64,000 nucleotides of DNA. Origin: Leptospira sp. GTDB taxonomy: Bacteria; Spirochaetota; Leptospiria; Leptospirales; Leptospiraceae. The notes under the pieces were generated by a model. That model was not told the origin of the DNA. It ran no database searches and worked only from the letters and a program-made list of their open reading frames with translations. Location of the stretch: positions 96,001 through 160,000 of the forward strand of contig JAWXAQ010000027.1 in the NCBI GenBank assembly GCA_034439575.1, given 5' to 3'. Numbering within the stretch: position 1 is the stretch's first letter; each line of letters opens with the position of its first letter. The position numbers and the translations under genes were made by a program. This document shows positions 1 through 16,000 of this stretch, in pieces.

Positions 1-246
1 AGGTACCAATTTGCAGTGGAATATGAAATAGCCAATCAAATTGGACCTCATGAAGCAAATTTTTTGAGATTAGATATTACAAAATCCTCAACTTATTTGT
101 CTTGGGAACCTAAATGGTCGATTAATACAGCATTTGAAAAAATAATTGATTGGATGGAAGCACATTTAGAAAAAAAGAATATTCTGAATATCTGTTTAAG
201 ACAAATAGAAGAGTATATGCAATTGGAAACCGAGGCTAAAAATTGA
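1..246 (+). CDS. rfbG: CDP-glucose 4,6-dehydratase, C-terminal fragment (5' end lies outside the window)
   Basis: Frame is open from base 1. The motif PHEANFLRLDITKSSTYLSWEPKW matches the RfbG/DdhB C-terminus (PHEA..LKLD.SKA...LGW.P.W). Directly upstream of rfbH. Confidence 0.85.
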   Translation, partial: RYQFAVEYEIANQIGPHEANFLRLDITKSSTYLSWEPKWSINTAFEKIIDWMEAHLEKKNILNICLRQIEEYMQLETEAKN

Positions 247-282
247 AAAAATTTAAAATTGCGAAATTAGGGAAATAAATTT

Positions 283-1914
283 ATGATAGGAGAAATTTAT
301 AAAGTTGATATATTAAAATATCAAGATGTAGATAAAAATCCTTCCGGATTGTATTTATGTATTGGAGAAAAAGATAATGAAGGGATAATACAATTTCTGA
401 GTCTCAGGGTCATTTCAGAACCTGTATCGAGTAACCTGATTGAAATTAATTCAGAAGATCTTATAAAATGCACATTAGATCAAAGATACTCTATTGACCT
501 AGGAAATACTTTTTCTTTCAATCTAAACGAAAATTCTGAATCAATTGGAGCAGTTAGTAAAGAATTTATTGCCAAGGTATTTAAAGGTTTAGTATTAAAA
601 TATACTAAAGCCTATTATGATTTTGAACATAAACCAAAACAACAAACAGTATTTTCAAAAGAAAAGAGTAAAATATCTTATGCAGGAAGAGTTTTTGACA
701 GTGCAGAATTGATTAATTTAGTAGATTCTTCTCTGGAATTTTGGTTAACAACAGGAAAATACGCTGAACAATTTGAGAGAGGTTTTTCGAAATTTTTAAA
801 TGTTCGTCACACTTTACTGGTCAATTCTGGATCTTCAGCTAACCTTGTGGCATTTAATTCGTTAACATCTCCTTCTTTAGGCGAAAGGCAGATAAAGAAA
901 GGAGACGAGGTGATTTGTGTTGCCGCTGGATTTCCTACAAGCATAAATCCTATTCTCCAGTATGGTGCAGTTCCAGTGTTTGTGGATATTTCTCTACCCA
1001 CCTATAATATAGATGTCAAATATTTAGAAGAATCAATTAGTAATAAAACTAAAGCAGTTATGCTTGCCCATACTTTGGGTAATCCTTTCGATTTGCAAAC
1101 AATCAAAAATTTTTGTAAAAAATATAATTTATGGTTAGTCGAAGATAACTGTGATGCCCTCGGAAGTCTTTACAATATAAATGATGAGTGGCATTACACT
1201 GGGACAATTGGAGATATAGGTACTTCAAGTTTTTATCCTCCGCATCACATGACAATGGGTGAAGGTGGAGCCGTATACATGAATTCGAATAAATTAAAAC
1301 GTATCGCAGAATCCATTCGAGATTGGGGAAGGGACTGCTGGTGTCCTTCGGGAAAAGACAATACGTGTGGAAAAAGGTTTGAATGGGAGTTAGGCGAATT
1401 GCCACTGGGATATGATCATAAATACATTTATTCTCATCTGGGTTATAATTTAAAAGTAACGGATTTACAAGCAGCTATTGGCGTAGCACAATTAAATAAA
1501 CTGCCTAATTTTGTAAATTCTAGAATTCAAAATTGGCAATTATTGAGAGACGGATTAAATGAACTTGAGGAATTTTTTATTTTACCGGAACCAACTTTAA
1601 ATTCTAAACCTAGTTGGTTCGGATTCCTTTTAACGATTAGAGATTCTTCACCATTTTCACGGGCAGAAATAGTAAATTTTCTAGAAGAAAAACGAATTCA
1701 AACAAGAATGCTCTTTGCAGGAAATTATTTGCGCCATCCAGTTTTCAACAATTTAAGAAATTTAGTAGATTATAAAATTGTAAATAATTTGAAAGTTACA
1801 GACATGGTTATGACAAATACTTTTTGGTTAGGTGTATATCCAGGTTTGAATGCAGAGATGATTCATTACATGATTGATTCAATCAAATCGTTTGTTAAAA
1901 AAAGAGTGAAATGA
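283..1914 (+). CDS. rfbH: CDP-4-keto-6-deoxyglucose 3-dehydrase (RfbH/DdhC, E1) with an extra ~95-aa N-terminal domain
   Basis: DegT-fold motifs FWLTTG, VNSGSSANL and EDNCDALGS. SFYPPHHMTMGEGG has His in place of the aminotransferase Lys. RDCWC...C...YDHKY supplies the Fe-S ligand motif. 543 aa is longer than the usual ~440 aa. Confidence 0.93.
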   Translation: MIGEIYKVDILKYQDVDKNPSGLYLCIGEKDNEGIIQFLSLRVISEPVSSNLIEINSEDLIKCTLDQRYSIDLGNTFSFNLNENSESIGAVSKEFIAKVFKGLVLKYTKAYYDFEHKPKQQTVFSKEKSKISYAGRVFDSAELINLVDSSLEFWLTTGKYAEQFERGFSKFLNVRHTLLVNSGSSANLVAFNSLTSPSLGERQIKKGDEVICVAAGFPTSINPILQYGAVPVFVDISLPTYNIDVKYLEESISNKTKAVMLAHTLGNPFDLQTIKNFCKKYNLWLVEDNCDALGSLYNINDEWHYTGTIGDIGTSSFYPPHHMTMGEGGAVYMNSNKLKRIAESIRDWGRDCWCPSGKDNTCGKRFEWELGELPLGYDHKYIYSHLGYNLKVTDLQAAIGVAQLNKLPNFVNSRIQNWQLLRDGLNELEEFFILPEPTLNSKPSWFGFLLTIRDSSPFSRAEIVNFLEEKRIQTRMLFAGNYLRHPVFNNLRNLVDYKIVNNLKVTDMVMTNTFWLGVYPGLNAEMIHYMIDSIKSFVKKRVK

Positions 1915-2774
1915 ACTTATTAATTTCAGGGATTTCTGGTTTTATTGGTAAAAGTTTATACAATTCATTAAGTCAAAACAAAGACTTTAAAATAATAATT
2001 ATTAGCCGAAAAAGTTCAGATTTAAGATTCATTAAAAATAGCGAAATTATATTTTGGGATGATCCTTTAATAGAAGAGAAAATAATTTCTTTAAAAGTGG
2101 ATGTTATTATTAATTTGATTACTAATTACGGAATTAATAATGATACAGAGGAAATAATTCATACAAATCTTCTCTTACCGCTAAAACTTTTAAAGTATGC
2201 AATAAAAGCTAAAATTTCTTACTTTTTGAATATTGGTACACCATTACATCAGTTTGTTTCAGAGTATGCTTTGTCTAAAAACCAATTTGCCGATTGGTTG
2301 AAGTATTATAGTAATCATATCAAAGTTGTGAATGTCCTACCAGAATATATATATGGTCCTGGTGATAAAAATGGAAAACTTTTTTCTAGTTTACTGAAAA
2401 GTTTTTCTGAAAATGTAGAATCTTTTTCTTTGTCACAAGGGGATCAGAAAAGAGATTTTATTTTTGTCGAAGATTTAATTTCAGCACTAAATGTTATTTT
2501 GCTGTCTTTGAGTCAATTTAAAACCAATTATATTGAGATACCTGTGGGTACTGGGATTACGGTATCAATTCGAGAATTTGCAGAAAAATTGAGGTCAATC
2601 TCTTGTGCCAAAACAATATTGAAATTTGGCGACGTAGTGAAGCGAATAAATGAAATGAGTGAACAAAAAGCTGATATTAGTATTATTTCCACATTAGGTT
2701 GGAAACCAAAATTTGATTTAGAAAATGGATTAATTGAAACATGGAAATTAAAAAAGCAGGAAGAACATGAGTGA
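1911..2774 (+). CDS. NAD-dependent epimerase/reductase, CDP-abequose/paratose synthase (RfbJ)-like
   Basis: GISGFIG Rossmann motif, YALSK (YxxxK), YGPGD, QKRDFIFVED. Overlaps the rfbH stop by 4 bp. Confidence 0.8.
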   Translation: MNLLISGISGFIGKSLYNSLSQNKDFKIIIISRKSSDLRFIKNSEIIFWDDPLIEEKIISLKVDVIINLITNYGINNDTEEIIHTNLLLPLKLLKYAIKAKISYFLNIGTPLHQFVSEYALSKNQFADWLKYYSNHIKVVNVLPEYIYGPGDKNGKLFSSLLKSFSENVESFSLSQGDQKRDFIFVEDLISALNVILLSLSQFKTNYIEIPVGTGITVSIREFAEKLRSISCAKTILKFGDVVKRINEMSEQKADISIISTLGWKPKFDLENGLIETWKLKKQEEHE

Positions 2775-3459
2775 CATTGAAATTTCTGTCGTAATACCAG
2801 CTTACTTTGAAGCAAATAATCTGGAACTAGTGTTACCTAGATTAACTAATACCTTAAAAGAAATGAAAATTCCTTACGAGGTTATAATTGTTGATTCGAT
2901 GATACCGCTTGATGAGACTGAAAATATTTGCAAGAAGAATAACGTTCATTATGTGAACCGAAAAAATGGTAATGAATACGGATTTGCATTTATTACAGGA
3001 ATTCAAATAGCAAAAGGCAAATCTATTGTCATAATGGATGCAGACGGATCTCATGATCCAGAAAAAATCAAAGAACTTTATCAATTTCGAAATGAATATC
3101 AAATAGTGATCGCATCTAGATATTTAGAAAAGAGTTCTACGGAAGTATCATTTTATCTTACTGGGATGAGCTTAATATTAAATTATATTTATAAATTTGT
3201 ATTAGGAATTGATGCGAATGATATTTCCAATAGTTATAGGTTATATAATGGAGAAATGCTTCGAGGTGTGACTTTAACTTCGAGAAATTTTGATATTTTG
3301 CAAGAGGTCTTGTATAAATTCATACGAAAATATAATGCAAAAATTAAAGAAATACCATTGCAATTTCATAAAAGAAAAAGTGGGAAAAGTAAAAGGAATT
3401 ATTTAGTATTTATTCCTAACTACATCAAAACATTAATTAAGCTTCGATTCTTTAATTAA
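2767..3459 (+). CDS. GT2 polyprenol-phosphate glycosyltransferase (DPM1-like)
   Basis: SVVIPAYFE, MDADGSHDP, IASRY, EIPLQFHKRKSGKSK. Confidence 0.85.
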   Translation: MSDIEISVVIPAYFEANNLELVLPRLTNTLKEMKIPYEVIIVDSMIPLDETENICKKNNVHYVNRKNGNEYGFAFITGIQIAKGKSIVIMDADGSHDPEKIKELYQFRNEYQIVIASRYLEKSSTEVSFYLTGMSLILNYIYKFVLGIDANDISNSYRLYNGEMLRGVTLTSRNFDILQEVLYKFIRKYNAKIKEIPLQFHKRKSGKSKRNYLVFIPNYIKTLIKLRFFN

Positions 3460-3462
3460 ATA

Positions 3463-5064
3463 ATGTTTCTCTACACAAATATTATTAAAAGAGTAAATTT
3501 AACTTTTAGAAAATATAAAGGGATTCCTTTTGCAATTTTTGCGATACTTGGATTTATTCTAATGTTCATTGCAAAAAAAAATCACTTTTTGTTCGAGTTA
3601 GGTGATTCATCCTTTTTAAGTGAGTTGTTGCATAATATTGCGGTAGATGGAAATCGAAATAGTTCAGTTTGGGATTCAGTTAAACAATATGCCTTTAATG
3701 ATATGGGATACTTAACGCAAGATCCATATACTTTATGTAAAGCAAACTTAGATCAAGTATTATTTAATCATGATTATTTCAAAGTTCATGCTTACTTTTA
3801 TTTATATTTGTTAGCTCCATTCGTTTTTATATTTCCTTCCGAGAATATTTTAATTTTTCTTCAAGCATTTTCTTTTTGGGGATTACTTGTAGGTGTATTT
3901 TATGTTAGTCGAAAAGAAAACGCAGGTTATTTAGTTTCTATAGTAATGTGTATCATTACTATATTTCATCCCGCTTATTCAATTGGATTCATGGGACAAA
4001 TATATACTGACAAATTCTTTCTAATTTTCGGAATTATTTTTGCTTATATTATTTATAAACAGAGAGTGAATAGTTTTATTCTTTTTCTAATGTGCGCTTT
4101 CATATGTTTGTTACATGAACGAATGGGAACTATATTGGCTATGTATGCTTTCCCATTTATGATTCTGAATCATGGTAAAAAAATTAAATTTTTATACGTT
4201 TTTATATTACTTTTGGGTTTGTGTTACAGTTTTTATACAATGGCATATTTCGTAGAAGTTGATACTGGTAAAAGTGGGTTTATTCCCAGTTCCTTTGAAA
4301 AACTTAATGATCGTTTCCAAAATGCAAATTTTCGAGAGGAATCTTTTGTTTTTTTAAGGACCAACTCTTTGTTTTTATTTTTAGCGATCTTTAATTTTCC
4401 ATCCTTCGTAGCTACCGTGTTGACGATGCTTCCCAATTTAATTGGATCCATTGGTGGTGCAGAGAAGACTGGATGGGCAACACATTATCACATGTATTAT
4501 TTACCATTTTTGGTATTTTCTGCATTTCTTGGTTTAAGTAGAATTTTAAAATTCATTAAGTTAAAATTTGATAACCAATACCTAAAAATTTTAATTCTAA
4601 CAATTCTTACATTAATTGCATATCCTGTTCAGTTTTCAAATTTTAACCAAAAAGAAGTTCAATTCAATTTCAATAATGTAAGAGATTTGTTGCCATTTAA
4701 ATTATATGAATGGTCTTTTTTTAAAAATGATTGGTACTTTCAAAGGTATTCTGATTTGCTCGTACTCCAATCAATTCCCAAAGGTTCGATCGTATCTACT
4801 CCTGAAGATTTTTTCCCTCCATTCATTAAAAATTATAAAATTAGATACTATCCTTTAGGATTAGGAGAGGCAGATTATTTAATTTTAACGAAAGATATTT
4901 CAAAAAATGGGAAATCTTATTATGTTGGGGCTAGAAGTTTTAGAGATCCTGAAGAGATAATCAATTTAAATTTATGTTTGAATGAAAAGATTGAAAGAAG
5001 TGGTTATAAAATAGCAAATGATTTTAACATGCTTACTGGAATCGTTGTTCTGAAGAAAAATTAA
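3463..5064 (+). CDS. Multi-pass membrane protein, putative GT-C glycosyltransferase (DUF2079-like); paralog of 6656..8290
   Basis: Many hydrophobic segments and an acidic loop after the first helix (ELGDSSFLSE). Shares HxYFxLYLxAP, PNxxGxIGGAEKxGWxTHYH and YYPLxxxEADY with 6656..8290. Confidence 0.65.
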   Translation: MFLYTNIIKRVNLTFRKYKGIPFAIFAILGFILMFIAKKNHFLFELGDSSFLSELLHNIAVDGNRNSSVWDSVKQYAFNDMGYLTQDPYTLCKANLDQVLFNHDYFKVHAYFYLYLLAPFVFIFPSENILIFLQAFSFWGLLVGVFYVSRKENAGYLVSIVMCIITIFHPAYSIGFMGQIYTDKFFLIFGIIFAYIIYKQRVNSFILFLMCAFICLLHERMGTILAMYAFPFMILNHGKKIKFLYVFILLLGLCYSFYTMAYFVEVDTGKSGFIPSSFEKLNDRFQNANFREESFVFLRTNSLFLFLAIFNFPSFVATVLTMLPNLIGSIGGAEKTGWATHYHMYYLPFLVFSAFLGLSRILKFIKLKFDNQYLKILILTILTLIAYPVQFSNFNQKEVQFNFNNVRDLLPFKLYEWSFFKNDWYFQRYSDLLVLQSIPKGSIVSTPEDFFPPFIKNYKIRYYPLGLGEADYLILTKDISKNGKSYYVGARSFRDPEEIINLNLCLNEKIERSGYKIANDFNMLTGIVVLKKN

Positions 5065-5178
5065 AATTTCTACCACAATGCATGAAGATTTGTCTATTGG
5101 TCTTATCCAAGGCAAAGTCGTAATAAATTCTATATACTATTTGAGATACCTTTCGAAATTAACCTATATACAATCAAT

Positions 5179-6651
5179 ATGACTAACTTTTTCACCCACC
5201 CTCAAGGCCTTTGCGAATCTAAGAATATTGGTAAAGATACAAAAATTTGGGCATTTGCTCACATACTTCCCAGTGCAATTATTGGAGAAGAATGTAATAT
5301 ATGTGACCATGTGTTTATAGAAAATGATGTTTCAATTGGAAACCGTGTAACAGTAAAATGTGGTGTTCAAATATGGGATGGGATTTCGATCGAAGATGAA
5401 GTTTTTATTGGTCCCAATGTAACATTTACAAATGATATGTTTCCAAGAAGCAAAGTTTATCCAGAGACATACCTTAAAACAAAAATCAAAAAGGGCGCAT
5501 CTATAGGGGCTAATGCAACTATTTTACCTGGTGTTACAATCGGTGAAGGAGCAATGATCGCAGCGGGATCGGTTGTTACCAAAGATGTTCCTTCTTTTTC
5601 TTTAGTTCGGGGAAATCCTGCCCGAGTCACAGGCACAGTAAATGCGCATGAGGTAATTCAGAATATGAGTAATTCGGATTTTAATAAAGAAAGAAAAGAT
5701 ATAGAAGTTTCTGTAGTCGTACCCGTTTATTACAATGGTCCTTCATTACCAATTCTTTATGATAGAATTGCGAAAGCATTTGAATCTGCTAATGTTTCAA
5801 ATTGGGACATCACCTTTGTCGATGATGATTCAAAAGATGATTCTCGTGTCATACTTGCCAACTTAGTACAACAAAAAACAAATGTTCGCTTTGTTTCCTT
5901 GTCTAGGAATTTTGGAAGTTTCGATGCGATAACAGCAGGGATAGGGTTTACTAACGGGCGTTGCGTGGCGGTTATATCGGCAGATTTGCAAGACCCACCA
6001 GAATTATTTCCAGCCATGTTAAAAGATTGGCGATCTGGAATTAAAATTGTTATGGCCGCTCGTGAATCAAGGGAAGATCCATGGACTTCACGTATTTTTT
6101 CTTTTCTTTTTTATCGGACTTTTCGTTTATTCGTTTCGAAAGAAATGCCGCCAGGTGGGTTTGACTTTTTTATTTTAGATCGCCAAGTTGCTGACTTACT
6201 AGTAAATCATGCAGAAAAAAATACAATGATGCCTGCAGCCTTACTTCACTTTGGTTTTGAAAAACGTTTACATTTTTATCATAGAGCAGCCCGAATTCAC
6301 GGATCATCAAAGTGGACGTTTTGGCGTAAATTCAAATTGATGTATGATGCGATTCTATCAAATTCTTTTGTTCCATTGCGTGTGATGACAGGCATTGGCG
6401 CACTTGGAGCTTTAGGTGCAATTGGTTATTCTGGAATCATTATCATTCAAAAATTTTTAAATCCAGATATTCCACAAGGTTGGACTGCATTGATGTTAGT
6501 TATTTTGTTTTTTAATAGCCTATTGTTAATATCATTAGGAATTGTCGGAGAATATGTTTGGCGAACTTTTGATGCGGCCAGAAAACGACCCCAGTTTGTG
6601 ATTGATAATGTAATAGCATCAACAGGACTTTCTACTGATAGGAAAGTGTAA
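5179..6651 (+). CDS. Fusion protein: WxcM/FdtC-like left-handed beta-helix N-acetyltransferase plus GtrB/ArnC-like GT2
   Basis: aa ~1-155 hexapeptide repeats ([33 protein letters not shown]). aa ~175-490 carry [27 protein letters not shown], two C-terminal TM helices and GEYVWR..RP. Confidence 0.88.
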
Positions 6652-6655
6652 ACAA

Positions 6656-8290
6656 ATGAATGTTATGCTAAGTAAAGTGTTAAAATTCACAAAGAAGAAC
6701 GAGATTCGAATTGTCTCTTTCTTTTTTTCTATACTCTTAATTGCTTTCACATATTCACTTACATTAAATTGGATTCGATCTTTTGGTGATTCAGCTTTTT
6801 TATCTGAGTTGATTGAAAATATAGCCAATACGGGACATGCTTCTTCTAATTTATTGTCTTCATCTCATGAAATGGAAATGAAAGCTCATATATATTCTAT
6901 GAAGGCAGAGCAGATTAAACAAACTGCACTCAAAGCAACGGATTATCAAAACGAATATGTTTTAAAATATCACACTTATTTTATTCTTTATTTGATAGCT
7001 CCATTGAATTGGATTATTCCAATTAATATTTTACTCCCTTTTTTGACAGCTTTAGCATTTACGGGAATACTATTCGTTACCTATTTGTTTCTCAGAAAAA
7101 ACAATGTTTCGGTGTTAGGATCATTTTTGTTTTGTTTTTTAATTTCAGTACATCCTGCTTGGAATCATGCCATCCAAGGTGAGTTCTATGTAGACCGCTT
7201 TTTTATGTTAATTGGTCTGCTTTTGATTTTTCAAATCAATGATAGAAAACCAAATTATTTATTAATATTTTTTATAAATCTAATCTGTCTTATTTCGAAT
7301 GATAGAATTGGATTATATACTGGGGCATTTTCTCTCGGTTATTCTGTTTTATTTTTTAAACGAGATAATATTAGATACTCAGTTTTTCTTTTTTGGCTTG
7401 GGATAGTATCGATCTGTTATGCGATATTTGCAATGAAAGTCCTTTTAACAAAGGTTGGGGCAGGCGGAACATATGATTCTTGGTTATCAGTTTCAGTTTT
7501 CACAAATTTTTTAGATTATCTTAAAGAATATCCAAATGCATTCGATAATTTTCTGCTTTTTTCTTTAATAAATATTCTAATTTTGACAGTCTTTGGTTTC
7601 TTGAAATGGCAAATTGTAATCATAACCCTAGGTTCAATGATTCCAAATATTTTAGGAAATATTGGCGGTGCTGAAAAGTCTGGTTGGACAACTCATTATC
7701 ATTCAAATTATTTTCCTATTTTAATTTGGGCCTTAGCTATTTCTTATATTTCTTTTTTTGACAAACGGAAATCTTCAAAGAAATCTAAACCACTTGCCTA
7801 CTTATTTGTTTTAATTTTCATTTTATTCTATTTGTTCTTTAACCCTTTTTCCTTAAAAGAGAGGTCATTTGATTTCAAAAGAATTGAATCGAATGCTTTT
7901 CTGGTGACTTGGAATGCAATCATTTCCGGAGAAGATCATCCTTCTTACAAATTGTATGAAACTGCAGAAAAAATGCGGAATTTTATTCCTGAAGGTTCAT
8001 CCGTTTCCTCTATAAACTATGCGACTTCATTTCTTTATAAAAATAGAAAGATTTATTATTATCCATTAGCGATCGATGAAGCTGACTATGTTGTTTTAAG
8101 GTATGATAACCTGGATGTATCGCCACCTTACTATTCGGTTTGGGTAAATTATGACCCTGAAGAAAATATTAAGTTAAATAAACTACTTAATATTAGATTA
8201 AAGGAAGTAGGATATGATGTATATCATCCTAAATTATTTGATTTCAATTTTGCAATTCTTGAACGTAAAAATAATCAGAGGAATCTTTGA
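6656..8290 (+). CDS. Multi-pass membrane protein, putative GT-C glycosyltransferase (DUF2079-like); paralog of 3463..5064
   Basis: SFGDSAFLSELIENIA, HTYFILYLIAP, PNILGNIGGAEKSGWTTHYH, YYPLAIDEADY. Multiple TM segments. Confidence 0.65.
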   Translation: MNVMLSKVLKFTKKNEIRIVSFFFSILLIAFTYSLTLNWIRSFGDSAFLSELIENIANTGHASSNLLSSSHEMEMKAHIYSMKAEQIKQTALKATDYQNEYVLKYHTYFILYLIAPLNWIIPINILLPFLTALAFTGILFVTYLFLRKNNVSVLGSFLFCFLISVHPAWNHAIQGEFYVDRFFMLIGLLLIFQINDRKPNYLLIFFINLICLISNDRIGLYTGAFSLGYSVLFFKRDNIRYSVFLFWLGIVSICYAIFAMKVLLTKVGAGGTYDSWLSVSVFTNFLDYLKEYPNAFDNFLLFSLINILILTVFGFLKWQIVIITLGSMIPNILGNIGGAEKSGWTTHYHSNYFPILIWALAISYISFFDKRKSSKKSKPLAYLFVLIFILFYLFFNPFSLKERSFDFKRIESNAFLVTWNAIISGEDHPSYKLYETAEKMRNFIPEGSSVSSINYATSFLYKNRKIYYYPLAIDEADYVVLRYDNLDVSPPYYSVWVNYDPEENIKLNKLLNIRLKEVGYDVYHPKLFDFNFAILERKNNQRNL

Positions 8291-9279
8291 TGATATCACA
8301 ATATAACAAAGCTAAGGTTTTGATAACAGGTGGCTTAGGATTTATAGGAAGTAATTTAGCAATTCAATTAGTTGAATTGGGAGCGGATGTACTTCTTGTG
8401 GATTCTATGATTCCTGAATATGGCGGAAATTTATATAACATCGAGTCTATAAAAGATAAAGTGTCGATCAATTATTGCAATATTACTGATATAAATGCCA
8501 TAAATTATTTAGTAAAAGACATTGATTATATTTTTCATCTTGCAGGTCAAGGCAGCCATAGTGTAAGCATTGTTGATCCATTTCTGGATATTGAATGCAA
8601 TATGATGGCAACATTAAACTTACTCGAAGCTTGCAAAAAAAATAATAGGAATGCTAAAATAGTTTTTACGGGAACTCGTGGCCAATATCGACCTAACATT
8701 GGATTACCGGCTACTGAAGATTCTGATATGACGCCGAATACTATTTATGGAGTCACAAATTTAGCTGCCGAAAAATTGATGTTAATTTATCATAATTTGT
8801 TCGGTTTAAAAACTATACTAACAAGGATTAGTAATGTTTATGGCTATAGAGCTCAGATGAGGAATAATAAGTATGGTGTTCCAAATTGGTTTTTACGTTT
8901 AGCAATAGACAATGCTGAAATTCCTATTTATGGAAGTGGCATGATTAAGCGTGATTTTCTATTTATAGATGATCTAATTAAAGCACTTTTATTATTACCA
9001 TTAGTAGAAAAATGTTTTGGCGAAGTATTTAATATTGGTGTACCTGAACCTTCAAATTATTTGGAGTTTGCCAATTTAGCCATTAAAGCTTCTAAATCAG
9101 GTTCTTTAAAAATGACTCCATTTCCCAAAGAATCAAAAGAACAAGAAGCAGGAGATTATTATCCTGATATAACAAAGATTAATGCTTATATTGGATGGAA
9201 ACCAGAAGTTAAGTTAGAAGATGGAATTCATAATACGATATCTTATTATAAAAAACATCGCCAACATTACTGGAATTAA
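8290..9279 (+). CDS. NAD-dependent nucleotide-sugar epimerase/dehydratase (extended SDR)
   Basis: ITGGLGFIG, FHLAGQ, RISNVYG, RDFLFIDD. The ATG at 8290 overlaps the upstream TGA (TGATG). The catalytic motif reads YGVTN. Confidence 0.85.
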   Translation: MISQYNKAKVLITGGLGFIGSNLAIQLVELGADVLLVDSMIPEYGGNLYNIESIKDKVSINYCNITDINAINYLVKDIDYIFHLAGQGSHSVSIVDPFLDIECNMMATLNLLEACKKNNRNAKIVFTGTRGQYRPNIGLPATEDSDMTPNTIYGVTNLAAEKLMLIYHNLFGLKTILTRISNVYGYRAQMRNNKYGVPNWFLRLAIDNAEIPIYGSGMIKRDFLFIDDLIKALLLLPLVEKCFGEVFNIGVPEPSNYLEFANLAIKASKSGSLKMTPFPKESKEQEAGDYYPDITKINAYIGWKPEVKLEDGIHNTISYYKKHRQHYWN

Positions 9280-9303
9280 ACTAAATTATTATTGGAGAAA
9301 TGT

Positions 9304-10389
9304 GTGATAATTTTTTATGATTTTAAAAAAGTTTATGATAGTTACAAAGCTGAAATTAATTCAGCAATAAGTAATGTTATTGATCGTGGTAATTTTATAT
9401 TAGGTGATGAGGTCTATGAATTTGAAAATTTATTCGCTAGTTATTGCGGAGCCAAATATTGTATAGGTGTTGGGAATGGATTAGATGCACTTACTTTAAT
9501 ACTTAAAGCTTATGATTTCCCTGAAGAATCGGAAATCATAGTACCTTCCAATACATTTATAGCTTCGATTCTTGCCATCACTCATGCTGGATTGAAGCCA
9601 ATACTCGTAGAGCCATCTTTAGAAAATTATAATATTGATCCGAATTACATCAAAAAATTTATTACTAAAAAAACTAAGGCTATTTTGCCTGTTCATTTGT
9701 ATGGGCGTATCGCCCCTATGGATGAGATTAAAGAGATTGGTAAAGAATATAATTTAAAAATCATTGAAGATGCCGCCCAAGCGCATGGCGCAGTATACAA
9801 TGGCATCAAAACGGGCAACCTTGGCGATGCCGCCGGATTTAGCTTTTATCCTGGTAAGAATTTAGGTTGCTTCGGTGATGGTGGAGCAATCGTTACTAGT
9901 GATGAAGAACTAATGCTTAAAGTCCGAGCATTAAGGAACTATGGTTCTTCACAAAAATATATTAATGATTTAAAAGGATTAAATAGTAGGTTAGATGAAA
10001 TTCAAGCTACAATCTTAAAAGTAAGGTTGAAATACTTAGACCAAGAAAATTCGGCAAGAAGAGTTGTTTCACAATACTACCGAACTCATATTAAAAATTC
10101 AAAAATTATATTACCTGATCTTAAGAATGAAGAAGAACATGTCTGGCATTTATTTACGGTTCGTACAGAAAATAGAGAAAATCTAAGATTACATTTAGAA
10201 AAAAATGATATCATGGCATTGATACATTATCCGATTGCTCCTCACAAACAAAAGGCCTACAAAGAGTGGGAAATGAATTCTTTTCCTATCTCTGAAAGTA
10301 TTCATAGAGAAATATTAAGTTTACCAATGAGTCCAGTTTTAACTCATTCTGAAATTGAGAAGATAGTAAATGTTGTTAATTCTTATTAA
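9304..10389 (+). CDS. fdtB: DegT/DnrJ/EryC1/StrS PLP aminotransferase, dTDP-3-amino-3,6-dideoxyhexose transaminase (FdtB)-like
   Basis: [33 protein letters not shown] (catalytic Lys), [12 protein letters not shown] at 9304 follows GGAG at 9294-9297; the ORF track starts at TTG 9292. Confidence 0.85.
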
Positions 10390-10427
10390 TACTAAGATTT
10401 GTTAAATAGAGAATAAATTAACCGAAA

Positions 10428-12476
10428 ATGAAACATTTTAATAGTATATTTAGCTTTGTTCTAACTATTTTTTTACTTGTATCGATATATTATAAATTTT
10501 CAAATTATCCTACTTTTCATGTTTTCTCTTTGCTAACTCATGTCAGTATATTTCTTTTACTTTCATTTTTTTTAATTATTTCGCTTAGTGAATTTGGAAA
10601 ATATTTGCGTGTTTACATATTTAAAAACAATTATTCTACATTAGATCTTGGATTAGGTATTGGTGCTTTTGCATTTATATTACAGTTTTATAATAAAATA
10701 GATCTGAATCATACTATTCCAGTTTTTTTCTTAATGTTCTTTTTTATTTCCAGCCTATATCAATTTAAATTTAGATACATCAAATCTTTAAAATTTAATT
10801 CAAATCGATATTTTGAATTCTTAATTTTATTACTATTTTTCGTTTACTTAGCAGAATTTGGAATATACGATGGACTACTAGAATATACGACAGACTTTGA
10901 TAGTAGCTTTCACCATATCGTCTTAGCACAAACAATGGTTAGAGAAGGACATTATTTCCCTCCGTTTTGGTTGCGTGCTCCCTTTATTCCACAACTCACA
11001 CATTCAATTTATATTTTTATATTATCAATCTTTAAGAATGATATCCTTTATATTAAATTATTAAATTTTATAGCATTTTATCAAATATTTAAAATTTTCT
11101 TAAATCGAAAGCGAAATTTAGATTTCTGGTTAGGTGGATTAATACTATTGATCATAGTTTTTTCACCTGAATTCACGTATTTATATAATACAAATTTAGA
11201 TGCTTTACTTGGCCTCTTTTATCTTTGTTCGCTCGTAATGTTTTATCGATGCTTACGTAATGAATTTAGTATAACAAATGTATCTATGTTAATTGTTTTC
11301 TGCGGTTTTGCAGGTGGTCAAAAACATTTCGGGTTGATGTTTTCGGTTCCTGTGATATTATTCAGTTTCTTTGGTTCGCTTATTTATTTTTATAAACAGG
11401 AGCTAATAGGAAAAAGTATTAAAGATGCAATAGCAAGTTGTATATATAACCAGAGATTCTATGGTTATGCTATATCATTTTTAAGTTTCTTTGTGGTTTT
11501 TATCCCTTTTTATATTCATAATCTTCTTGCTAATTCTAATTTATTTTTTCCTTTTATGGGTAATAAAGTAAATGCATATGGTTGGTCAAAGCAAGAAATC
11601 GAAGACTTTACTGGTCCAACTATCAATCATTGGGGACATCAAAAATCGGTTACTGGTTTTTTTCAATTGCCATATGATTTGATAAATTTTCCAGATGATT
11701 TTCAATTCTTTCAAACCAATACTTGGCATGATTATGTAGTGCCGTTTTTATTCATTTTCCCTATATTTCTTTTATTTATCACAATAGTATTCAAAAGCAC
11801 TAAAAAACATCTTTTATTATCGATCGTTTTAATTTGCTGTTATGTGTTATGGTTTCAAAGTAGCCAAGTGATAAGGTATCTTTTTCCAATTAATATAGGA
11901 TCACTTTTTTTAATTTATATACAATTTTCAAATTTTAAAAATTTACATACAAAATTTGCATTAAATTTTTTGAAAATTGCATTTCTCACTTTTTTTATCT
12001 ATCTTTCCCTTGAAAATTTTAAAGAAGTAAATTTTATTTTACCCAGTAACTCAAATGAGCGTTTGATTTATAGGAAATTTCAATTTGGGTCAATGATAGA
12101 AGGAAATATTAAAATTACACAATCCAATAATAATTCTGGAGTATTAGAATTTGGTCCACATGCTGTAATGGCTAGATCCTTATTTCCTAATCTAACATTT
12201 TGTGGAGATTGGTTTGGTGGATGCGCTTTTGAAAAATTCACACTTAGGAATACACCCATGCAATTTAAGTCGTGGGAAGAAATCAAGAAAGCGAGTCAAT
12301 TTATGAAAATTGATTTTATCTCAATTTACTGGACACAATTTCGCGATGGTTCGGCACCTGCTACTGAATTAGAATACAATTTAGTTTTCCCAGAATCTGT
12401 GAGAAAATGCATAGAACCATTTTATAAGGTCTCTGGTGAATATGATATTTTTTCTATAAAGAATGAATGTAAATGA
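10428..12476 (+). CDS. Large multi-pass membrane protein, putative GT-C-fold (ArnT-like) transferase
   Basis: Many TM segments, loop motif DFDSSFHH, NLFFPF, QVIRYLFP, soluble C-terminal domain. Confidence 0.55.
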   Translation: MKHFNSIFSFVLTIFLLVSIYYKFSNYPTFHVFSLLTHVSIFLLLSFFLIISLSEFGKYLRVYIFKNNYSTLDLGLGIGAFAFILQFYNKIDLNHTIPVFFLMFFFISSLYQFKFRYIKSLKFNSNRYFEFLILLLFFVYLAEFGIYDGLLEYTTDFDSSFHHIVLAQTMVREGHYFPPFWLRAPFIPQLTHSIYIFILSIFKNDILYIKLLNFIAFYQIFKIFLNRKRNLDFWLGGLILLIIVFSPEFTYLYNTNLDALLGLFYLCSLVMFYRCLRNEFSITNVSMLIVFCGFAGGQKHFGLMFSVPVILFSFFGSLIYFYKQELIGKSIKDAIASCIYNQRFYGYAISFLSFFVVFIPFYIHNLLANSNLFFPFMGNKVNAYGWSKQEIEDFTGPTINHWGHQKSVTGFFQLPYDLINFPDDFQFFQTNTWHDYVVPFLFIFPIFLLFITIVFKSTKKHLLLSIVLICCYVLWFQSSQVIRYLFPINIGSLFLIYIQFSNFKNLHTKFALNFLKIAFLTFFIYLSLENFKEVNFILPSNSNERLIYRKFQFGSMIEGNIKITQSNNNSGVLEFGPHAVMARSLFPNLTFCGDWFGGCAFEKFTLRNTPMQFKSWEEIKKASQFMKIDFISIYWTQFRDGSAPATELEYNLVFPESVRKCIEPFYKVSGEYDIFSIKNECK

Positions 12477-13294
12477 GTAAATCAATTTTGATTACTGGTA
12501 TTAATGGATTTGTCGCAAAACATATCGCTGTTAGAGCTAAACAATTAGGTTATAAAGTCATTGGAACTGTATCTAATCCCAGCAAGATAGAAAGTTCATT
12601 AATTTACGTAGATGAAATTTATGTTTTCAATTTATTAGATAAACAGTTACCATTATTTAATTCCCAGATTGATTATGTGATTCATTGTGCCATCGACATT
12701 GAAAATCCAAAACCAAGTATACAAAGAACCATTGAACTTAATGAAAAAATTTCAGAAAAAAACCGATCGAAGTGTATATTTGTAAGTTCAATATCGATGA
12801 ATGAAGCAAACAAAAGCAACTATTCAATTATTAAACAGGAATTGGAAAAATATTTTAAAGTGATCAACAATTCTTTAATCGTTCGACCTGGATTGATATT
12901 AGGTGATGGAGGACTCTTTCAAACTATGTCTAGATACGTTCAGAATGGGAATCTCATCCCACTACCAGATGGTGGTAAATATAAAATGGCAGTCATTACA
13001 ATTGATAAATTTGTGGATTATTTGTTTTATGCGATGGAAGGTAAAGTTTATGGGATTAAAAATTTATTTGATAAAAAATTAATTACCTTGGCCCAAATAG
13101 TAAGGGACATTGCAAAGAAAAGTAATAAGAGAATTTTTATAATATACATTCCAATTTCGTTTGTAGAATTTTTTGGTCCTTTGGTTATCACTATTTTAAA
13201 ACTTATAAATGTTAAAATAAGTTTTGATAGTATTATCGGATATAAATTATATAGAGATATGATACTTCCAGAATCAGATTTAGGAAATCAATGA
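12473..13294 (+). CDS. NAD-dependent epimerase/reductase (atypical SDR)
   Basis: ITGINGFVA, IHCA, FVSSIS, YSIIK (YxxxK), RPGLILGDGG. Confidence 0.8.
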   Translation: MSKSILITGINGFVAKHIAVRAKQLGYKVIGTVSNPSKIESSLIYVDEIYVFNLLDKQLPLFNSQIDYVIHCAIDIENPKPSIQRTIELNEKISEKNRSKCIFVSSISMNEANKSNYSIIKQELEKYFKVINNSLIVRPGLILGDGGLFQTMSRYVQNGNLIPLPDGGKYKMAVITIDKFVDYLFYAMEGKVYGIKNLFDKKLITLAQIVRDIAKKSNKRIFIIYIPISFVEFFGPLVITILKLINVKISFDSIIGYKLYRDMILPESDLGNQ

Positions 13295-13836
13295 AACTTA
13301 AAAGTATATTACAAAAATTTAGTTTAACCGAAATTATATATTTAGAATTAGAACAATATACTTATTTTTTAGTAAAATACATTCCTGGAACATTAGGATT
13401 TATATTGAGATTTCTTTTTATCAAATTATTTTCTAAAAAATTAACTGGGATGATTTGGATCCAACCAGGTGTAGAATTTATCCATGTAAAAAATATTACT
13501 TTTGGAAAGGGTGTAGGTATTAACACCGGTTCATATATTAATGGTGTTGGTTCAATTACATTTTCCGATCATGTTTTGGTGGGAAATAATGTTACAATTT
13601 CATCGGGTAAACATCCAACTGAATTAAATGAATTAAAAATTATTGAAATTCCTACCATTCGATTACCTATTAAAATAGGAAAAGGAGTTTGGATCGCGGC
13701 TGGTGCGGTCATTATGCCTGGAATCGAAATTGGTGCTGATTCTGTAATCGGAGCGAATTCAGTCGTTACTAAGCATATATCCCCTAACGGTATATATGTT
13801 GGTGCACCAGCAAAACTCATTAAAGAAAGAAAGTAA
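13291..13836 (+). CDS. Hexapeptide-repeat O-acyltransferase (maltose acetyltransferase-like)
   Basis: Left-handed beta-helix repeats, SSGKHP loop His, IGKGVWIAAGAVIMPG, GAPAK. Confidence 0.85.
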   Translation: MKLKSILQKFSLTEIIYLELEQYTYFLVKYIPGTLGFILRFLFIKLFSKKLTGMIWIQPGVEFIHVKNITFGKGVGINTGSYINGVGSITFSDHVLVGNNVTISSGKHPTELNELKIIEIPTIRLPIKIGKGVWIAAGAVIMPGIEIGADSVIGANSVVTKHISPNGIYVGAPAKLIKERK

Positions 13837-13847
13837 TAATAATATAA

Positions 13848-14276
13848 ATGAAAAGTTTTACATTTGAAAAAGAAAATTTAAGCAAAGAAGCCAATTTTCT
13901 ATTGAAGGAATTATTTTCTATTGAAGATAATGAAAGTTTGGCGAATCTTTATGTGCAGGCGCATGAATTTATATTAAAAAATCCAGGAATAGAGATCAAA
14001 GATGTAGACATTCAAAAAATAATTCAGAAAAAAATTAATCCTGAAGCTGTTGAATTTGCGATGAGAATTAAATTTCGAGATAATTTACTCACAAAAAAAA
14101 TTCAAATTCTAACTTATATCATAGAATCGCGGAAGGAATATAATGGGTTGTTTAATAATTTTAATAATAGATTTTTTTTTGGTTTTGCTTTGCTGATCTT
14201 CATGACAATGCGATCCATTTTTCTTTATTTTACAGGAAGATATTTAATTTCGCGACATCATCTTATAAGAGAATAG
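13848..14276 (+). CDS. Hypothetical protein with a C-terminal hydrophobic segment
   Basis: 142-aa ORF, co-oriented and tightly spaced in the operon. No motif recognised. Confidence 0.7.
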   Translation: MKSFTFEKENLSKEANFLLKELFSIEDNESLANLYVQAHEFILKNPGIEIKDVDIQKIIQKKINPEAVEFAMRIKFRDNLLTKKIQILTYIIESRKEYNGLFNNFNNRFFFGFALLIFMTMRSIFLYFTGRYLISRHHLIRE

Positions 14277-14413
14277 AAATAATCTTTATATAACTTTCTT
14301 TTTGAAAGAAACTATAAACATAATATTACAACAAAATTATGTGATAATAATATTTACTAAATTACGAAAATGAATATTAAAAAAAATAAAATAATAAAGC
14401 CAAAATCCAATAT

Positions 14414-16000
14414 ATGACCTCGCAAATTTATGATGTCATCATTGTTGGTTCAGGACCAGCGGGAATGGCTTCCGCTTACCAATTGCAAGGAAGATCAGTT
14501 TTGATGCTCGATGTTGGAAATAAACCGCCGCAAGTTTCAAATTTCGATGATAACTTATTTGATCTAAAAGAAAAACGAGATTTATTCACTGAGCTTGTAG
14601 GCAATTCTTTTGAGAGTCTTCATAATATAGACCAAAAATACCTTAGTCCGAAATTGAAAGCACCTCTTATGAGGTATGTGACAAATGGTGCTGAAAAATT
14701 AGCACCAATTCAATCCAATGAATTTGAAATGGCTCAGAGTTTTGCTTACGGTGGTTTAGCTAATGCCTGGGGCGCAGGAATGCTTCGCTTCAATGATTAT
14801 GATTTGCAAGGTTTTCCAATTTCTTATACAGATTTAAAACCCTTTTATGATAAGTTATCTGATATAATAGGCATTAGTGGGGAGAATGATGATTTATCAT
14901 TATTTTTTGGCAACGATGAAAAATTTCAAGAACCACATCAAATAGGTTTTTTAGGAAGCGATCTTCTAAAAATTTATAATAAACATAAAAAGAATTTTAA
15001 TACCCAAGGAATTTTTATTGGTCGTAATCGCTTAGGACTTCTTACTAAAGAAAAAGATGGAAGAAAACCATGCCAATACGATAATCTAGAATTTTATAAA
15101 TCAAATATACCAGCTAACTATAACCCTACATACACCTTGGATAGATTAATTAATGATGCTGTTTTGATCTATAAGTCAGGTTATTTGGTAAAATTTTATA
15201 GAGAAGAAAATAATTTAGTGGAGATTCATGCATTGAATTTGAATTCCCAAAAAATTGAAATATTTAAGAGCAAAACTATCGTATTAGCCGCTGGTTGTAT
15301 TAATACAGCGAAGATAATTTTACAATCAAATGAAGATTTCGAAACTAAGTTACCAATTTACGATAATCCCATATCATATGTTCCTTTTTTAGTTCCCAAG
15401 TTTATTGGTAGACCGATAGAGAAGAAAGCCTACTCAGCACAGCTAATATTTGTTCATGAAGATCCACTAACTAAAGAAAGGATAAATGGATCGTTTTATG
15501 GTTTGAGTGGACCAATGAAATCTGATTTATTTTTCGAGTTTCCCTTATCAATAAAAGCGAATTTAGCAGCTGTTAAATATTTGGTTCCGGCTATCGCAAT
15601 TATGCAAATTTTTTATTATGATAAAGATCATCCAAGCAATTATCTTCATTTAACGCGTGATAATAAAATTTTTATTTCATATAAAGAAAAACCAATAAAA
15701 AATAATGATATTGAAAAAAAGATAATTTCTTCTCTGCGAAAATTTGGCTATTTGAGTCATAGCTCACTTTGTAAATTCCCAGCTCCGGGAAATAGCTTTC
15801 ATTATGCGGGAAGTGTTCCTATGAAAACAAATCCAAAACGATATCAAACAACCTTGAAGGGAAATCTTTGGAATTCTGATCGTATATTTATTGCGGATTC
15901 GGCAAATTTTCCAGCTTTTCCTGCAAAGAATCATTCGTATACGATTATGGCAAATGCGATGCGAATCTCCGAGCATTTGAAAGCTCAATTGAATGTTTGA
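14414..16000 (+). CDS. GMC-family FAD-dependent oxidoreductase
   Basis: DVIIVGSGPAG FAD motif, GGLANAWGAG, SFHYAGSVPM (His) and NHSYTIMANAMR (Asn) as the catalytic pair. Confidence 0.88.
   Translation: MTSQIYDVIIVGSGPAGMASAYQLQGRSVLMLDVGNKPPQVSNFDDNLFDLKEKRDLFTELVGNSFESLHNIDQKYLSPKLKAPLMRYVTNGAEKLAPIQSNEFEMAQSFAYGGLANAWGAGMLRFNDYDLQGFPISYTDLKPFYDKLSDIIGISGENDDLSLFFGNDEKFQEPHQIGFLGSDLLKIYNKHKKNFNTQGIFIGRNRLGLLTKEKDGRKPCQYDNLEFYKSNIPANYNPTYTLDRLINDAVLIYKSGYLVKFYREENNLVEIHALNLNSQKIEIFKSKTIVLAAGCINTAKIILQSNEDFETKLPIYDNPISYVPFLVPKFIGRPIEKKAYSAQLIFVHEDPLTKERINGSFYGLSGPMKSDLFFEFPLSIKANLAAVKYLVPAIAIMQIFYYDKDHPSNYLHLTRDNKIFISYKEKPIKNNDIEKKIISSLRKFGYLSHSSLCKFPAPGNSFHYAGSVPMKTNPKRYQTTLKGNLWNSDRIFIADSANFPAFPAKNHSYTIMANAMRISEHLKAQLNV

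Follow-up and report, generated by a model that had tools for sequence, protein, structure and literature searches.

A probably disarmed MazF/PemK-type domain at the N-terminus of the RfbH dehydrase of a Leptospira species

Why should an RfbH dehydrase, an enzyme of dideoxysugar synthesis, begin with a second, toxin-like domain? This question is raised by the first complete gene (ORF 283..1914, forward strand) in a stretch of 64,000 nucleotides (nt) of a Leptospira species, positions 96,001 to 160,000 of contig JAWXAQ010000027.1 in assembly GCA_034439575.1, which is referred to here as the window. A previous reading of the letters alone, called the sequence-only reading below, had described an extra domain of about 100 amino acids (aa) ahead of the RfbH homology and had likened it to the PemK/MazF endoribonucleases. 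The analysis presented here leads us to the view that this domain is probably a translated, conserved and catalytically dead relic of MazF/PemK type, retained as a structural element of the E1 dehydrase.

The RfbH homology of the window protein sets in near aa 93-102. In an RfbH of the same order that lacks the extension (G029, 442 aa) the start falls opposite K93, and therefore the extra N-terminal piece comprises aa 1-92 (nt 283-558), in good agreement with the size given by the sequence-only reading. The sequence of the window protein by itself gives no direct match to MazF, and the homology becomes visible only after orthologues are pooled. An AlphaFold2 model of the N-terminal domain (N-domain) calculated from eight orthologues (predicted local distance difference test, pLDDT, 79.7; predicted template modelling score, pTM, 0.71) contains seven strands (residues 9-13, 22-26, 35-43, 52-55, 60-62, 69-80 and 85-91) followed by a C-terminal helix. 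In a VIA structural search against representative structures, the top 11 chains were all MazF, Kid or CcdB (Z 8.9-10.9, root-mean-square deviation (rmsd) 2.1-3.0 Å, 81-96 residues). The next ranks were taken by the type III toxins CptN, ToxN and AbiQ at Z 5.6-7.9, and generic small barrels (SH3, Tudor, Sm-like) were found at Z about 5 (at most 5.2) over 43-71 residues. The top rows listed by Foldseek were all MazF-family toxins as well (TM 0.57-0.73).

Furthermore, the family was compared with MazF at the level of sequence profiles. A profile of 13 members was aligned by hhalign end to end, over 91 columns, with 28 MazF toxins from Leptospira genomes (Prob 84.3%, P 7.2e-6, score 35.6). As a control, 30 column-shuffled alignments were used, the best of which reached a score of 13.8. 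The orthologue G111, which is identical to the NCBI-named RfbH of Leptospira ilyithenensis, matches PF02452 over profile positions 3-100 of 109 with an E-value of 1.9e-4 and 22.1 bits (cut-off 23.1). In a feature search of the ESM Atlas with the extension, PemK/MazF clusters were nearest (score 0.93); a word-indexed homologue search with aa 1-105 returned the protein itself alone. Taken together, the model and the profile alignments support aa 1-92 as a genuine MazF/Kid/CcdB-fold domain homologous to MazF/PemK. The fold proposed by the sequence-only reading was thus recovered by structural as well as by profile matches, though only with the help of orthologues.

A model of the full-length protein calculated from 17 sequences (pLDDT 81.8, pTM 0.80) predicts aa 93-120 as one helix. 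The alignment with MazF structures extends to model residue 102 and places their C-terminal helix on the start of this helix. As its start corresponds to the C-terminal helix of MazF and its further run to the first helix of RfbH, the predicted helix would join both domains rigidly. The last of the MazF motifs recognized by eye in the sequence-only reading (IG-x-L..E...V) lies on this helix, which is common to both parts. A complex prediction with two copies of the N-domain gave a score of 0.00 and thus no verdict either way.

Several observations concern the translation of the extension. Ahead of the conserved core, codons 1 and 23 are the only in-frame ATG, GTG or TTG codons, and the next one, codon 143, already lies within the core. 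When 283..558 was shuffled with matched composition, 92 codons stayed open in 1 of 20000 trials (5e-5). Among the 156 genomes of the order that were scanned for RfbH, and to which all counts for the order refer, 15 contain the gene. Thirteen of these genes are extended, with open frames of 532-606 aa, and two are unextended (444 and 446 aa). The frames are open in all 13 lineages even though the N-domains are only 9-27% identical to that of the window and share no invariant column; over the full length of the proteins, identity is 48-64%. Metagenome contigs from other samples covering 1-1840, 126-389 and 361-692 show zero differences and zero indels, and one more contig carries two changes, at nt 573 and 576, which are third codon positions and synonymous by inspection. 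In the single usable, unsaturated pair (G016/G116) the ratio of nonsynonymous to synonymous substitution rates (dN/dS) was 0.30 for the N-domain as compared to 0.03 for the RfbH body. Thus, the lack of a start codon between codons 23 and 143, the improbability of a chance open frame, the open frames across the order, the dN/dS value and the contigs from other samples support that the N-terminal extension is translated and under selection, as far as sequence comparison can tell. In addition, an AGG-containing site is located 6-12 nt 5' of the extension's ATG in six of six Leptospiraceae orthologues inspected.

Two side observations belong here. In a metatranscriptome library, one 189-nt contig matches segment 1201-1387 of the RfbH body apart from a single difference. 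This weakly suggests transcription of the gene in nature; being the sole RNA contig, it leaves the extension without metatranscriptome coverage. The gene of L. ilyithenensis (L020:1453-3081) is present in two public annotations, as a protein of 543 aa with the MazF-like domain (P0012) and as one of 445 aa that starts at an internal Met, by which the domain is cut off (P0023). Start-codon calls thus disagree between annotations for one and the same gene.

The fusion is by no means restricted to Leptospira. Whether other RfbH proteins carry the extension, and whether any of them keeps the catalytic Arg and Thr, had been left as a question by the sequence-only reading, and the answer to both parts is yes. 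A search with the whole protein gave, among the 120 best clusters, 64 extended (514-592 aa) and 56 short forms (443-491 aa). A precomputed annotation with PF02452 and PF01041 is present for 14 of the long clusters and for none of the short ones; the architecture is therefore visible in the automatic Pfam annotation of relatives and absent from that of the window protein. When the long clusters other than the window's own were scanned with PF02452, an N-terminal match was obtained for 32 of 63 at E<=0.1 and for 16 of 63 above the gathering cut-off, with the best score for P0069 (50.1 bits, E 3.6e-13). Sources of the long forms include Desulfonauticus submarinus, Desulfobacterota bacterium, Omnitrophica and Turneriella, and the proteins are labelled as RfbH or E1 dehydrase only. 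In an alignment of 66 N-domains with five real MazF toxins, Arg-Pro and (I/L)T(T/S) are both retained in 32 N-domains and Arg without Pro in five, and the remainder, including the window protein, has neither. A FastTree phylogeny of the RfbH bodies was calculated from 97 rows, after 24 rows in which the anchor pattern was unmatched and one duplicate gene had been dropped. All 30 motif-less rows fall inside one set of 33 with a support of 96.

Relatives with intact motifs were then analyzed in their genomic context. To this end, an alignment of four canonical N-domains was used to scan one genome per species, which resulted in 34 loci (L070-L103) from more than 10 phylum-level groups, among them Desulfobacterota, Omnitrophota, Sulfurimonas, Nitrospirae, Geobacter, Methylococcales, Bacteroidales, Riflebacteria and Verrucomicrobiota. 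In 22 of the loci the N-domain and a complete RfbH share one frame (531-603 aa); two loci encode 535 aa and do not have the exact motif string, and four run off the contig end. As an aside, a stop interrupts the frame after 24-274 aa in the remaining six loci (L072, L074, L082, L093, L100 and L103), which could reflect errors in metagenome-assembled genomes, pseudogenes or a toxin domain encoded on its own.

The fusion is preceded in 32 of the 34 loci by a small same-strand ORF, the end of which lies between -10 and +17 nt from the first matched codon of the fusion. The two exceptions are a locus with only 157 nt of upstream sequence and a locus that has no such ORF. The small ORF encodes 65-90 aa and lies between rfbG and the MazF::RfbH fusion, the start of which it overlaps or nearly abuts; the gene before it was rfbG in 12 of 12 loci tested. 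This is the position of a type II antitoxin gene. The products of 22 small ORFs (21 canonical ones and that of G111) align as one family, in which a Gly, a Glu and a Trp are invariant and the C-terminal tail is acidic and contains Trp, and the upstream partners of real Leptospira MazF genes end in Trp after acidic residues in 13 of 15 cases. In the ESM Atlas, the small ORF falls into unnamed clusters, with DUF2281 at 0.78 as the nearest named one, which is a lead only. By its position and its tail the small ORF is a candidate antitoxin. Among the 13 fused genes of the order, only G111 has kept it (L020 1266..1463, + strand). G111 is also the least decayed and the only one of these fused genes with a Pfam PemK match and an Arg at the catalytic column.

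The copy in the window keeps neither the motifs nor the small ORF. In alignments with MazF it has G22-L23 at the Arg-Pro columns and, like its clade, no conserved Thr at the ITS/TT site; the absence of both catalytic residues had been noted correctly in the sequence-only reading. According to PMC10893535, the Arg and the Thr are the catalytic pair of MazF: Arg25 and Thr48 were found to be essential residues of MazF-bs, and the exchanges R29A and T52A abolish or strongly reduce the activity of MazF-sth. Aa 1-102 of the window protein carry a net charge of -6 with an isoelectric point (pI) of 4.5, and the N-domains of all 13 fused genes of the order share this acidity (net charge -1 to -9, pI 4.5-5.7). 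Among 28 MazF toxins of Leptospira, 25 have a pI of at least 9.0. An antitoxin-like ORF was not found 5' of the window's fusion: no ORF with the conserved tail motif is present upstream, and the gap of 36 bp is too small for such a gene, as had been pointed out before. In the lineage of the window, the domain has thus lost both the Arg-Pro and the Thr motif and acquired an acidic surface, and a deletion has removed the small gene upstream. We infer that the domain would no longer cut or bind RNA. Judged from the alignments, the copies form a series of a toxin domain being disarmed, which leads from intact motifs with an antitoxin-like gene to the acidic, motif-less and antitoxin-less copy of the window.

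We propose the following course of events. An ancestral module, consisting of a small antitoxin-like gene and the fusion of a MazF domain to RfbH, would have been inserted between rfbG and the RfbH body. In the lineage of the window, the motifs would then have been lost along with the small gene while the surface was acidified, and the domain would have stopped cutting or binding RNA. It would persist under relaxed purifying selection, and we suggest that it was retained because its C-terminal helix became one piece with the first helix of RfbH. The domain would now cap the E1 dehydrase structurally and aid folding, dimer assembly or partner docking, and the enzyme would still deoxygenate CDP-4-keto-6-deoxyglucose at C-3 as its step of the rfbF-rfbG-rfbH pathway. 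Among the options raised by the sequence-only reading, the capture of a toxin-antitoxin gene by the rfb locus, with the domain as its remnant, agrees best with the data, as relatives keep the motifs and the antitoxin-like upstream ORF. The comparisons establish the fold, the homology, the conservation and the shared helix together with the loss of the motifs, the acidity and the loss of the small ORF.

Several points weigh against the relic interpretation or parts of it. The present function as a structural cap is one that we infer. With aa 1-105 of the window protein, Pfam and NCBIfam gave no match at E<=10, the gathering score of PF02452 was not reached, and PDB sequences yielded no match to the extension; full-library phmmer returned two repeat proteins (Ig-like and Calx-like), which were judged spurious. 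Seven of the first eight orthologues had no Pfam match, a PDB sequence search with the 8-member profile and the G111 domain gave chance-level rows only, and hhalign with the 8-member alignment reached no more than Prob 38.8% (P 3.2e-4) against the 28 Leptospira toxins. The Foldseek E-values are about 1.6e-3 and higher, with none at or below 1e-3. The dN/dS values come from one pair, as the other 20 of 21 pairs were synonymously saturated and unusable. The small-ORF family, called a candidate antitoxin for its position and acidic Trp tail, matched neither Pfam, NCBIfam and PDB sequences nor two Leptospira MazE-type alignments. Finally, short and extended RfbH proteins are interleaved in the tree with at least 12 changes, 6 of them forced by well-supported branches; part of the short forms may be start-codon miscalls of the kind seen with P0023.

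It is conceivable, although we regard it as a tentative and rather doubtful extension of the relic interpretation, that the intact relatives are working toxin-antitoxin pairs, made up of an undescribed family of small proteins and a MazF::RfbH fusion with intact catalytic motifs, that are physically tied to the synthesis of dideoxyhexoses, which are O-antigen sugars. The window would then represent the decayed end-state of this phylum-spanning module. Such a pair could serve the sugar cluster as an addiction device, or it could work as a switch by which RNase activity is set free once the synthesis of surface sugars is disturbed, for example during phage attack.

The alternative that survives best, though we consider it unlikely, is that the N-domain docks a protein partner, such as the E3-type reductase or ferredoxin required by E1 dehydrases or another pathway enzyme, by means of the groove that holds RNA or the antitoxin tail in MazF. 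The acidic surface resembles that of protein-binding members of the fold, and CcdB, which acts by binding a protein and not RNA, is matched at Z 8.9 and rmsd 2.1 Å. The purifying selection on the N-domain points in the same direction. With PF00175 (NAD_binding_1, E3-like reductase) as the sole Pfam family used as probe, no such gene was found on the window's contig, and none in the rfb region made up of window 1-16000 and the upstream segment L066 (G000:C27:84001-96300); of 14 other RfbH-bearing genomes of the order, one has a PF00175 gene within 6 kb of rfbH and 13 have none. With no E3-like gene nearby, RfbH would have to recruit a generic redox partner encoded elsewhere. However, the pattern does not discriminate, because it holds equally for two unextended RfbH genes, and a missing adjacent E3 reductase was for this reason rejected as an explanation for the extension. 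A conserved surface patch was not found either; the 13 domains have diverged to the low identities given above. As a side observation, the window genome has three NAD_binding_1 genes on other contigs; inspection of one of them, an open frame of 307 aa, revealed no ferredoxin-type domain by eye.

A second alternative, which appears improbable to us, holds that the N-domain still binds or cleaves RNA, for example the mRNA of its own operon, and thereby autoregulates rfb expression. It draws on the MazF fold and on the many relatives that keep the catalytic Arg and Thr, so that the ancestral fusion may have been active. In the window protein, however, Gly-Leu occupies the Arg-Pro columns, the conserved Thr is missing, and no antitoxin-like ORF precedes the gene. 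RNA binding, one of the roles suggested in the sequence-only reading, is moreover made unlikely by the acidic charge of the domain (-6, as opposed to the mostly basic MazF toxins of the genus).

That the extension is not translated at all, the true start being located downstream and the open frame being annotation noise, is highly improbable. The 445-aa annotation P0023 of the L. ilyithenensis orthologue would agree with it, but elsewhere the same gene is annotated with 543 aa. It is contradicted by codon 143 being the first alternative start after codon 23 in the window gene, by the open frame in 13 lineages, by a dN/dS below 1 and by the AGG-containing sites of the six Leptospiraceae orthologues. 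Convergence of a generic SH3-like or Tudor-like barrel on a MazF-like shape, for which the recurrence of small beta-barrels and the chains at Z about 5 might be quoted, is scarcely credible in view of the clear gap in Z and aligned length that separates MazF, Kid and CcdB from such barrels and of the graded intermediates by which sequence profiles link the family to PF02452.

The positions of the fused gene, its parts and its direct neighbours are compiled in the table.

Table. Features of the rfbG-rfbH region in window coordinates.
Feature	Position	Strand	Evidence
rfbG (CDP-glucose 4,6-dehydratase), 3' end, gene directly upstream	1..246	+	full gene L066:11107-12243, TIGR02622 E 1.2e-142; stop codon 244-246
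36-bp intergenic gap with AGGGA Shine-Dalgarno-like site at 269-273, 9 nt before the ATG	247..282	+	sequence inspection
Fusion of a degenerate MazF/PemK-like domain and RfbH (E1 dehydrase), whole gene, 543 aa	283..1914	+	ORF, profile matches, full-length model
Aa 1-92, predicted seven-stranded MazF/Kid/CcdB-fold barrel, acidic, no catalytic Arg, no conserved Thr	283..558	+	model strands, fold and profile matches, motif columns, charge
Aa 93-120, predicted single continuous helix linking both domains	559..642	+	full-length model, MazF structural alignment, start of unextended RfbH
RfbH / CDP-4-keto-6-deoxy-D-glucose-3-dehydrase (E1) body, aa 102-540	586..1902	+	NF011936, 3bcx/3bb8 alignment, invariant columns
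NAD-dependent epimerase/reductase-like gene, 287 aa, 4-nt overlap with rfbH stop	1911..2774	+	weak matches to models of short-chain dehydrogenase/reductase (SDR) sugar epimerases/reductases

The RfbH body of the window protein looks intact by comparison with its relatives. The NCBIfam RfbH model NF011936 covers it at profile positions 11-438 of 440 with 712.5 bits (cut-off 423), Pfam DegT matches aa 142-534, and aa 123-537 can be aligned with 3bcx, an E1 dehydrase of known structure (437 aa), at an E-value of 7.8e-150. H321-H322 coincide with the His-His of 3bcx, where aminotransferases have their Schiff-base Lys; in the variant 3bb8 the first of the two positions is occupied by Lys. E1 dehydrases of the RfbH type contain a [2Fe-2S] cluster held by Cys ligands, and Cys290, 352, 354 and 362 are invariant across 17 RfbH sequences. 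Two relatives carry charged or His/Pro-rich low-complexity inserts in the RfbH body (P0053 at about aa 298-330 and P0065 at about aa 296-345), at the loop where the window protein has a 4-residue insert relative to 3bcx.

Upstream in the same rfbF-rfbG-rfbH run lies rfbF, encoding glucose-1-phosphate cytidylyltransferase (TIGR02623, E 8.9e-125). Farther upstream of rfbF, the polysaccharide locus contains a gene for a B12-binding radical SAM methyltransferase (L066:3092-5149, + strand, KedN5-family, E 4.2e-48, below the model cut-off), which hints at a C-methylated sugar. Two ORFs of 682 aa in the locus (L066:8262-10307 and window 10428-12473, both on the + strand) look hydrophobic on inspection and belong to no NCBIfam family; they were rejected as paralogues of each other for want of detectable similarity (BLASTP E 0.013).

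Overall, MazF toxins are familiar as free proteins with a partner antitoxin, and here one has been welded to a housekeeping sugar-modifying enzyme. The fusion is common, comprising more than half of the closest RfbH clusters and many phyla, and the series of copies would be a natural record of a toxin domain that was disarmed and then retained by an enzyme in a structural role. A paper on a MazF/PemK-RfbH fusion was not found in the literature searched, with subscription journals lying outside its coverage; papers in which PemK and DegT occur together look incidental, and one preprint (10.1101/2024.05.08.593097) is said to mention a MazF-like domain in a CRISPR-associated system.

When compared with known systems, the N-domain is closest to the MazF/PemK/Kid toxins (PF02452; PDB 4mzm, 1m1f and 7bye), with which it shares the fold, the strand order and the C-terminal helix (Z 10.4-10.9). 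It aligns with them end to end by profile, and relatives of the fusion pass the Pfam cut-off and keep Arg-Pro and Thr. The toxins are, however, free proteins of 105-115 aa, whereas the window's copy is the N-terminus of an enzyme, acidic and devoid of the catalytic Arg/Thr and of an antitoxin gene. The gyrase poison CcdB (PDB 1vub) has the same superfold (81 residues aligned), but no sequence link to the window domain was found, and nothing points to gyrase binding. With the E1 dehydrases RfbH/DdhC/AscC (CDP-6-deoxy-L-threo-D-glycero-4-hexulose-3-dehydrase, 3bcx) the window protein shares the His-His, the conserved Cys and the rfbF-rfbG context. The E1 enzymes studied so far have no N-terminal domain, whereas about 92 residues precede the first helix in the window protein; E1 dehydrase biochemistry has thus been carried out on the unextended form, e.g. 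the solved 437-aa enzyme. The same fusion with the same junction is found in proteins annotated as PemK_toxin plus DegT_DnrJ_EryC1, such as P0069 from Desulfonauticus submarinus (547 aa) and P0044 from Desulfobacterota bacterium M19 (546 aa), the RfbH bodies of which are 54-70% identical to that of the window. Members of this type keep the toxin motifs and the small ORF upstream, whereas the clade of the window has lost both.

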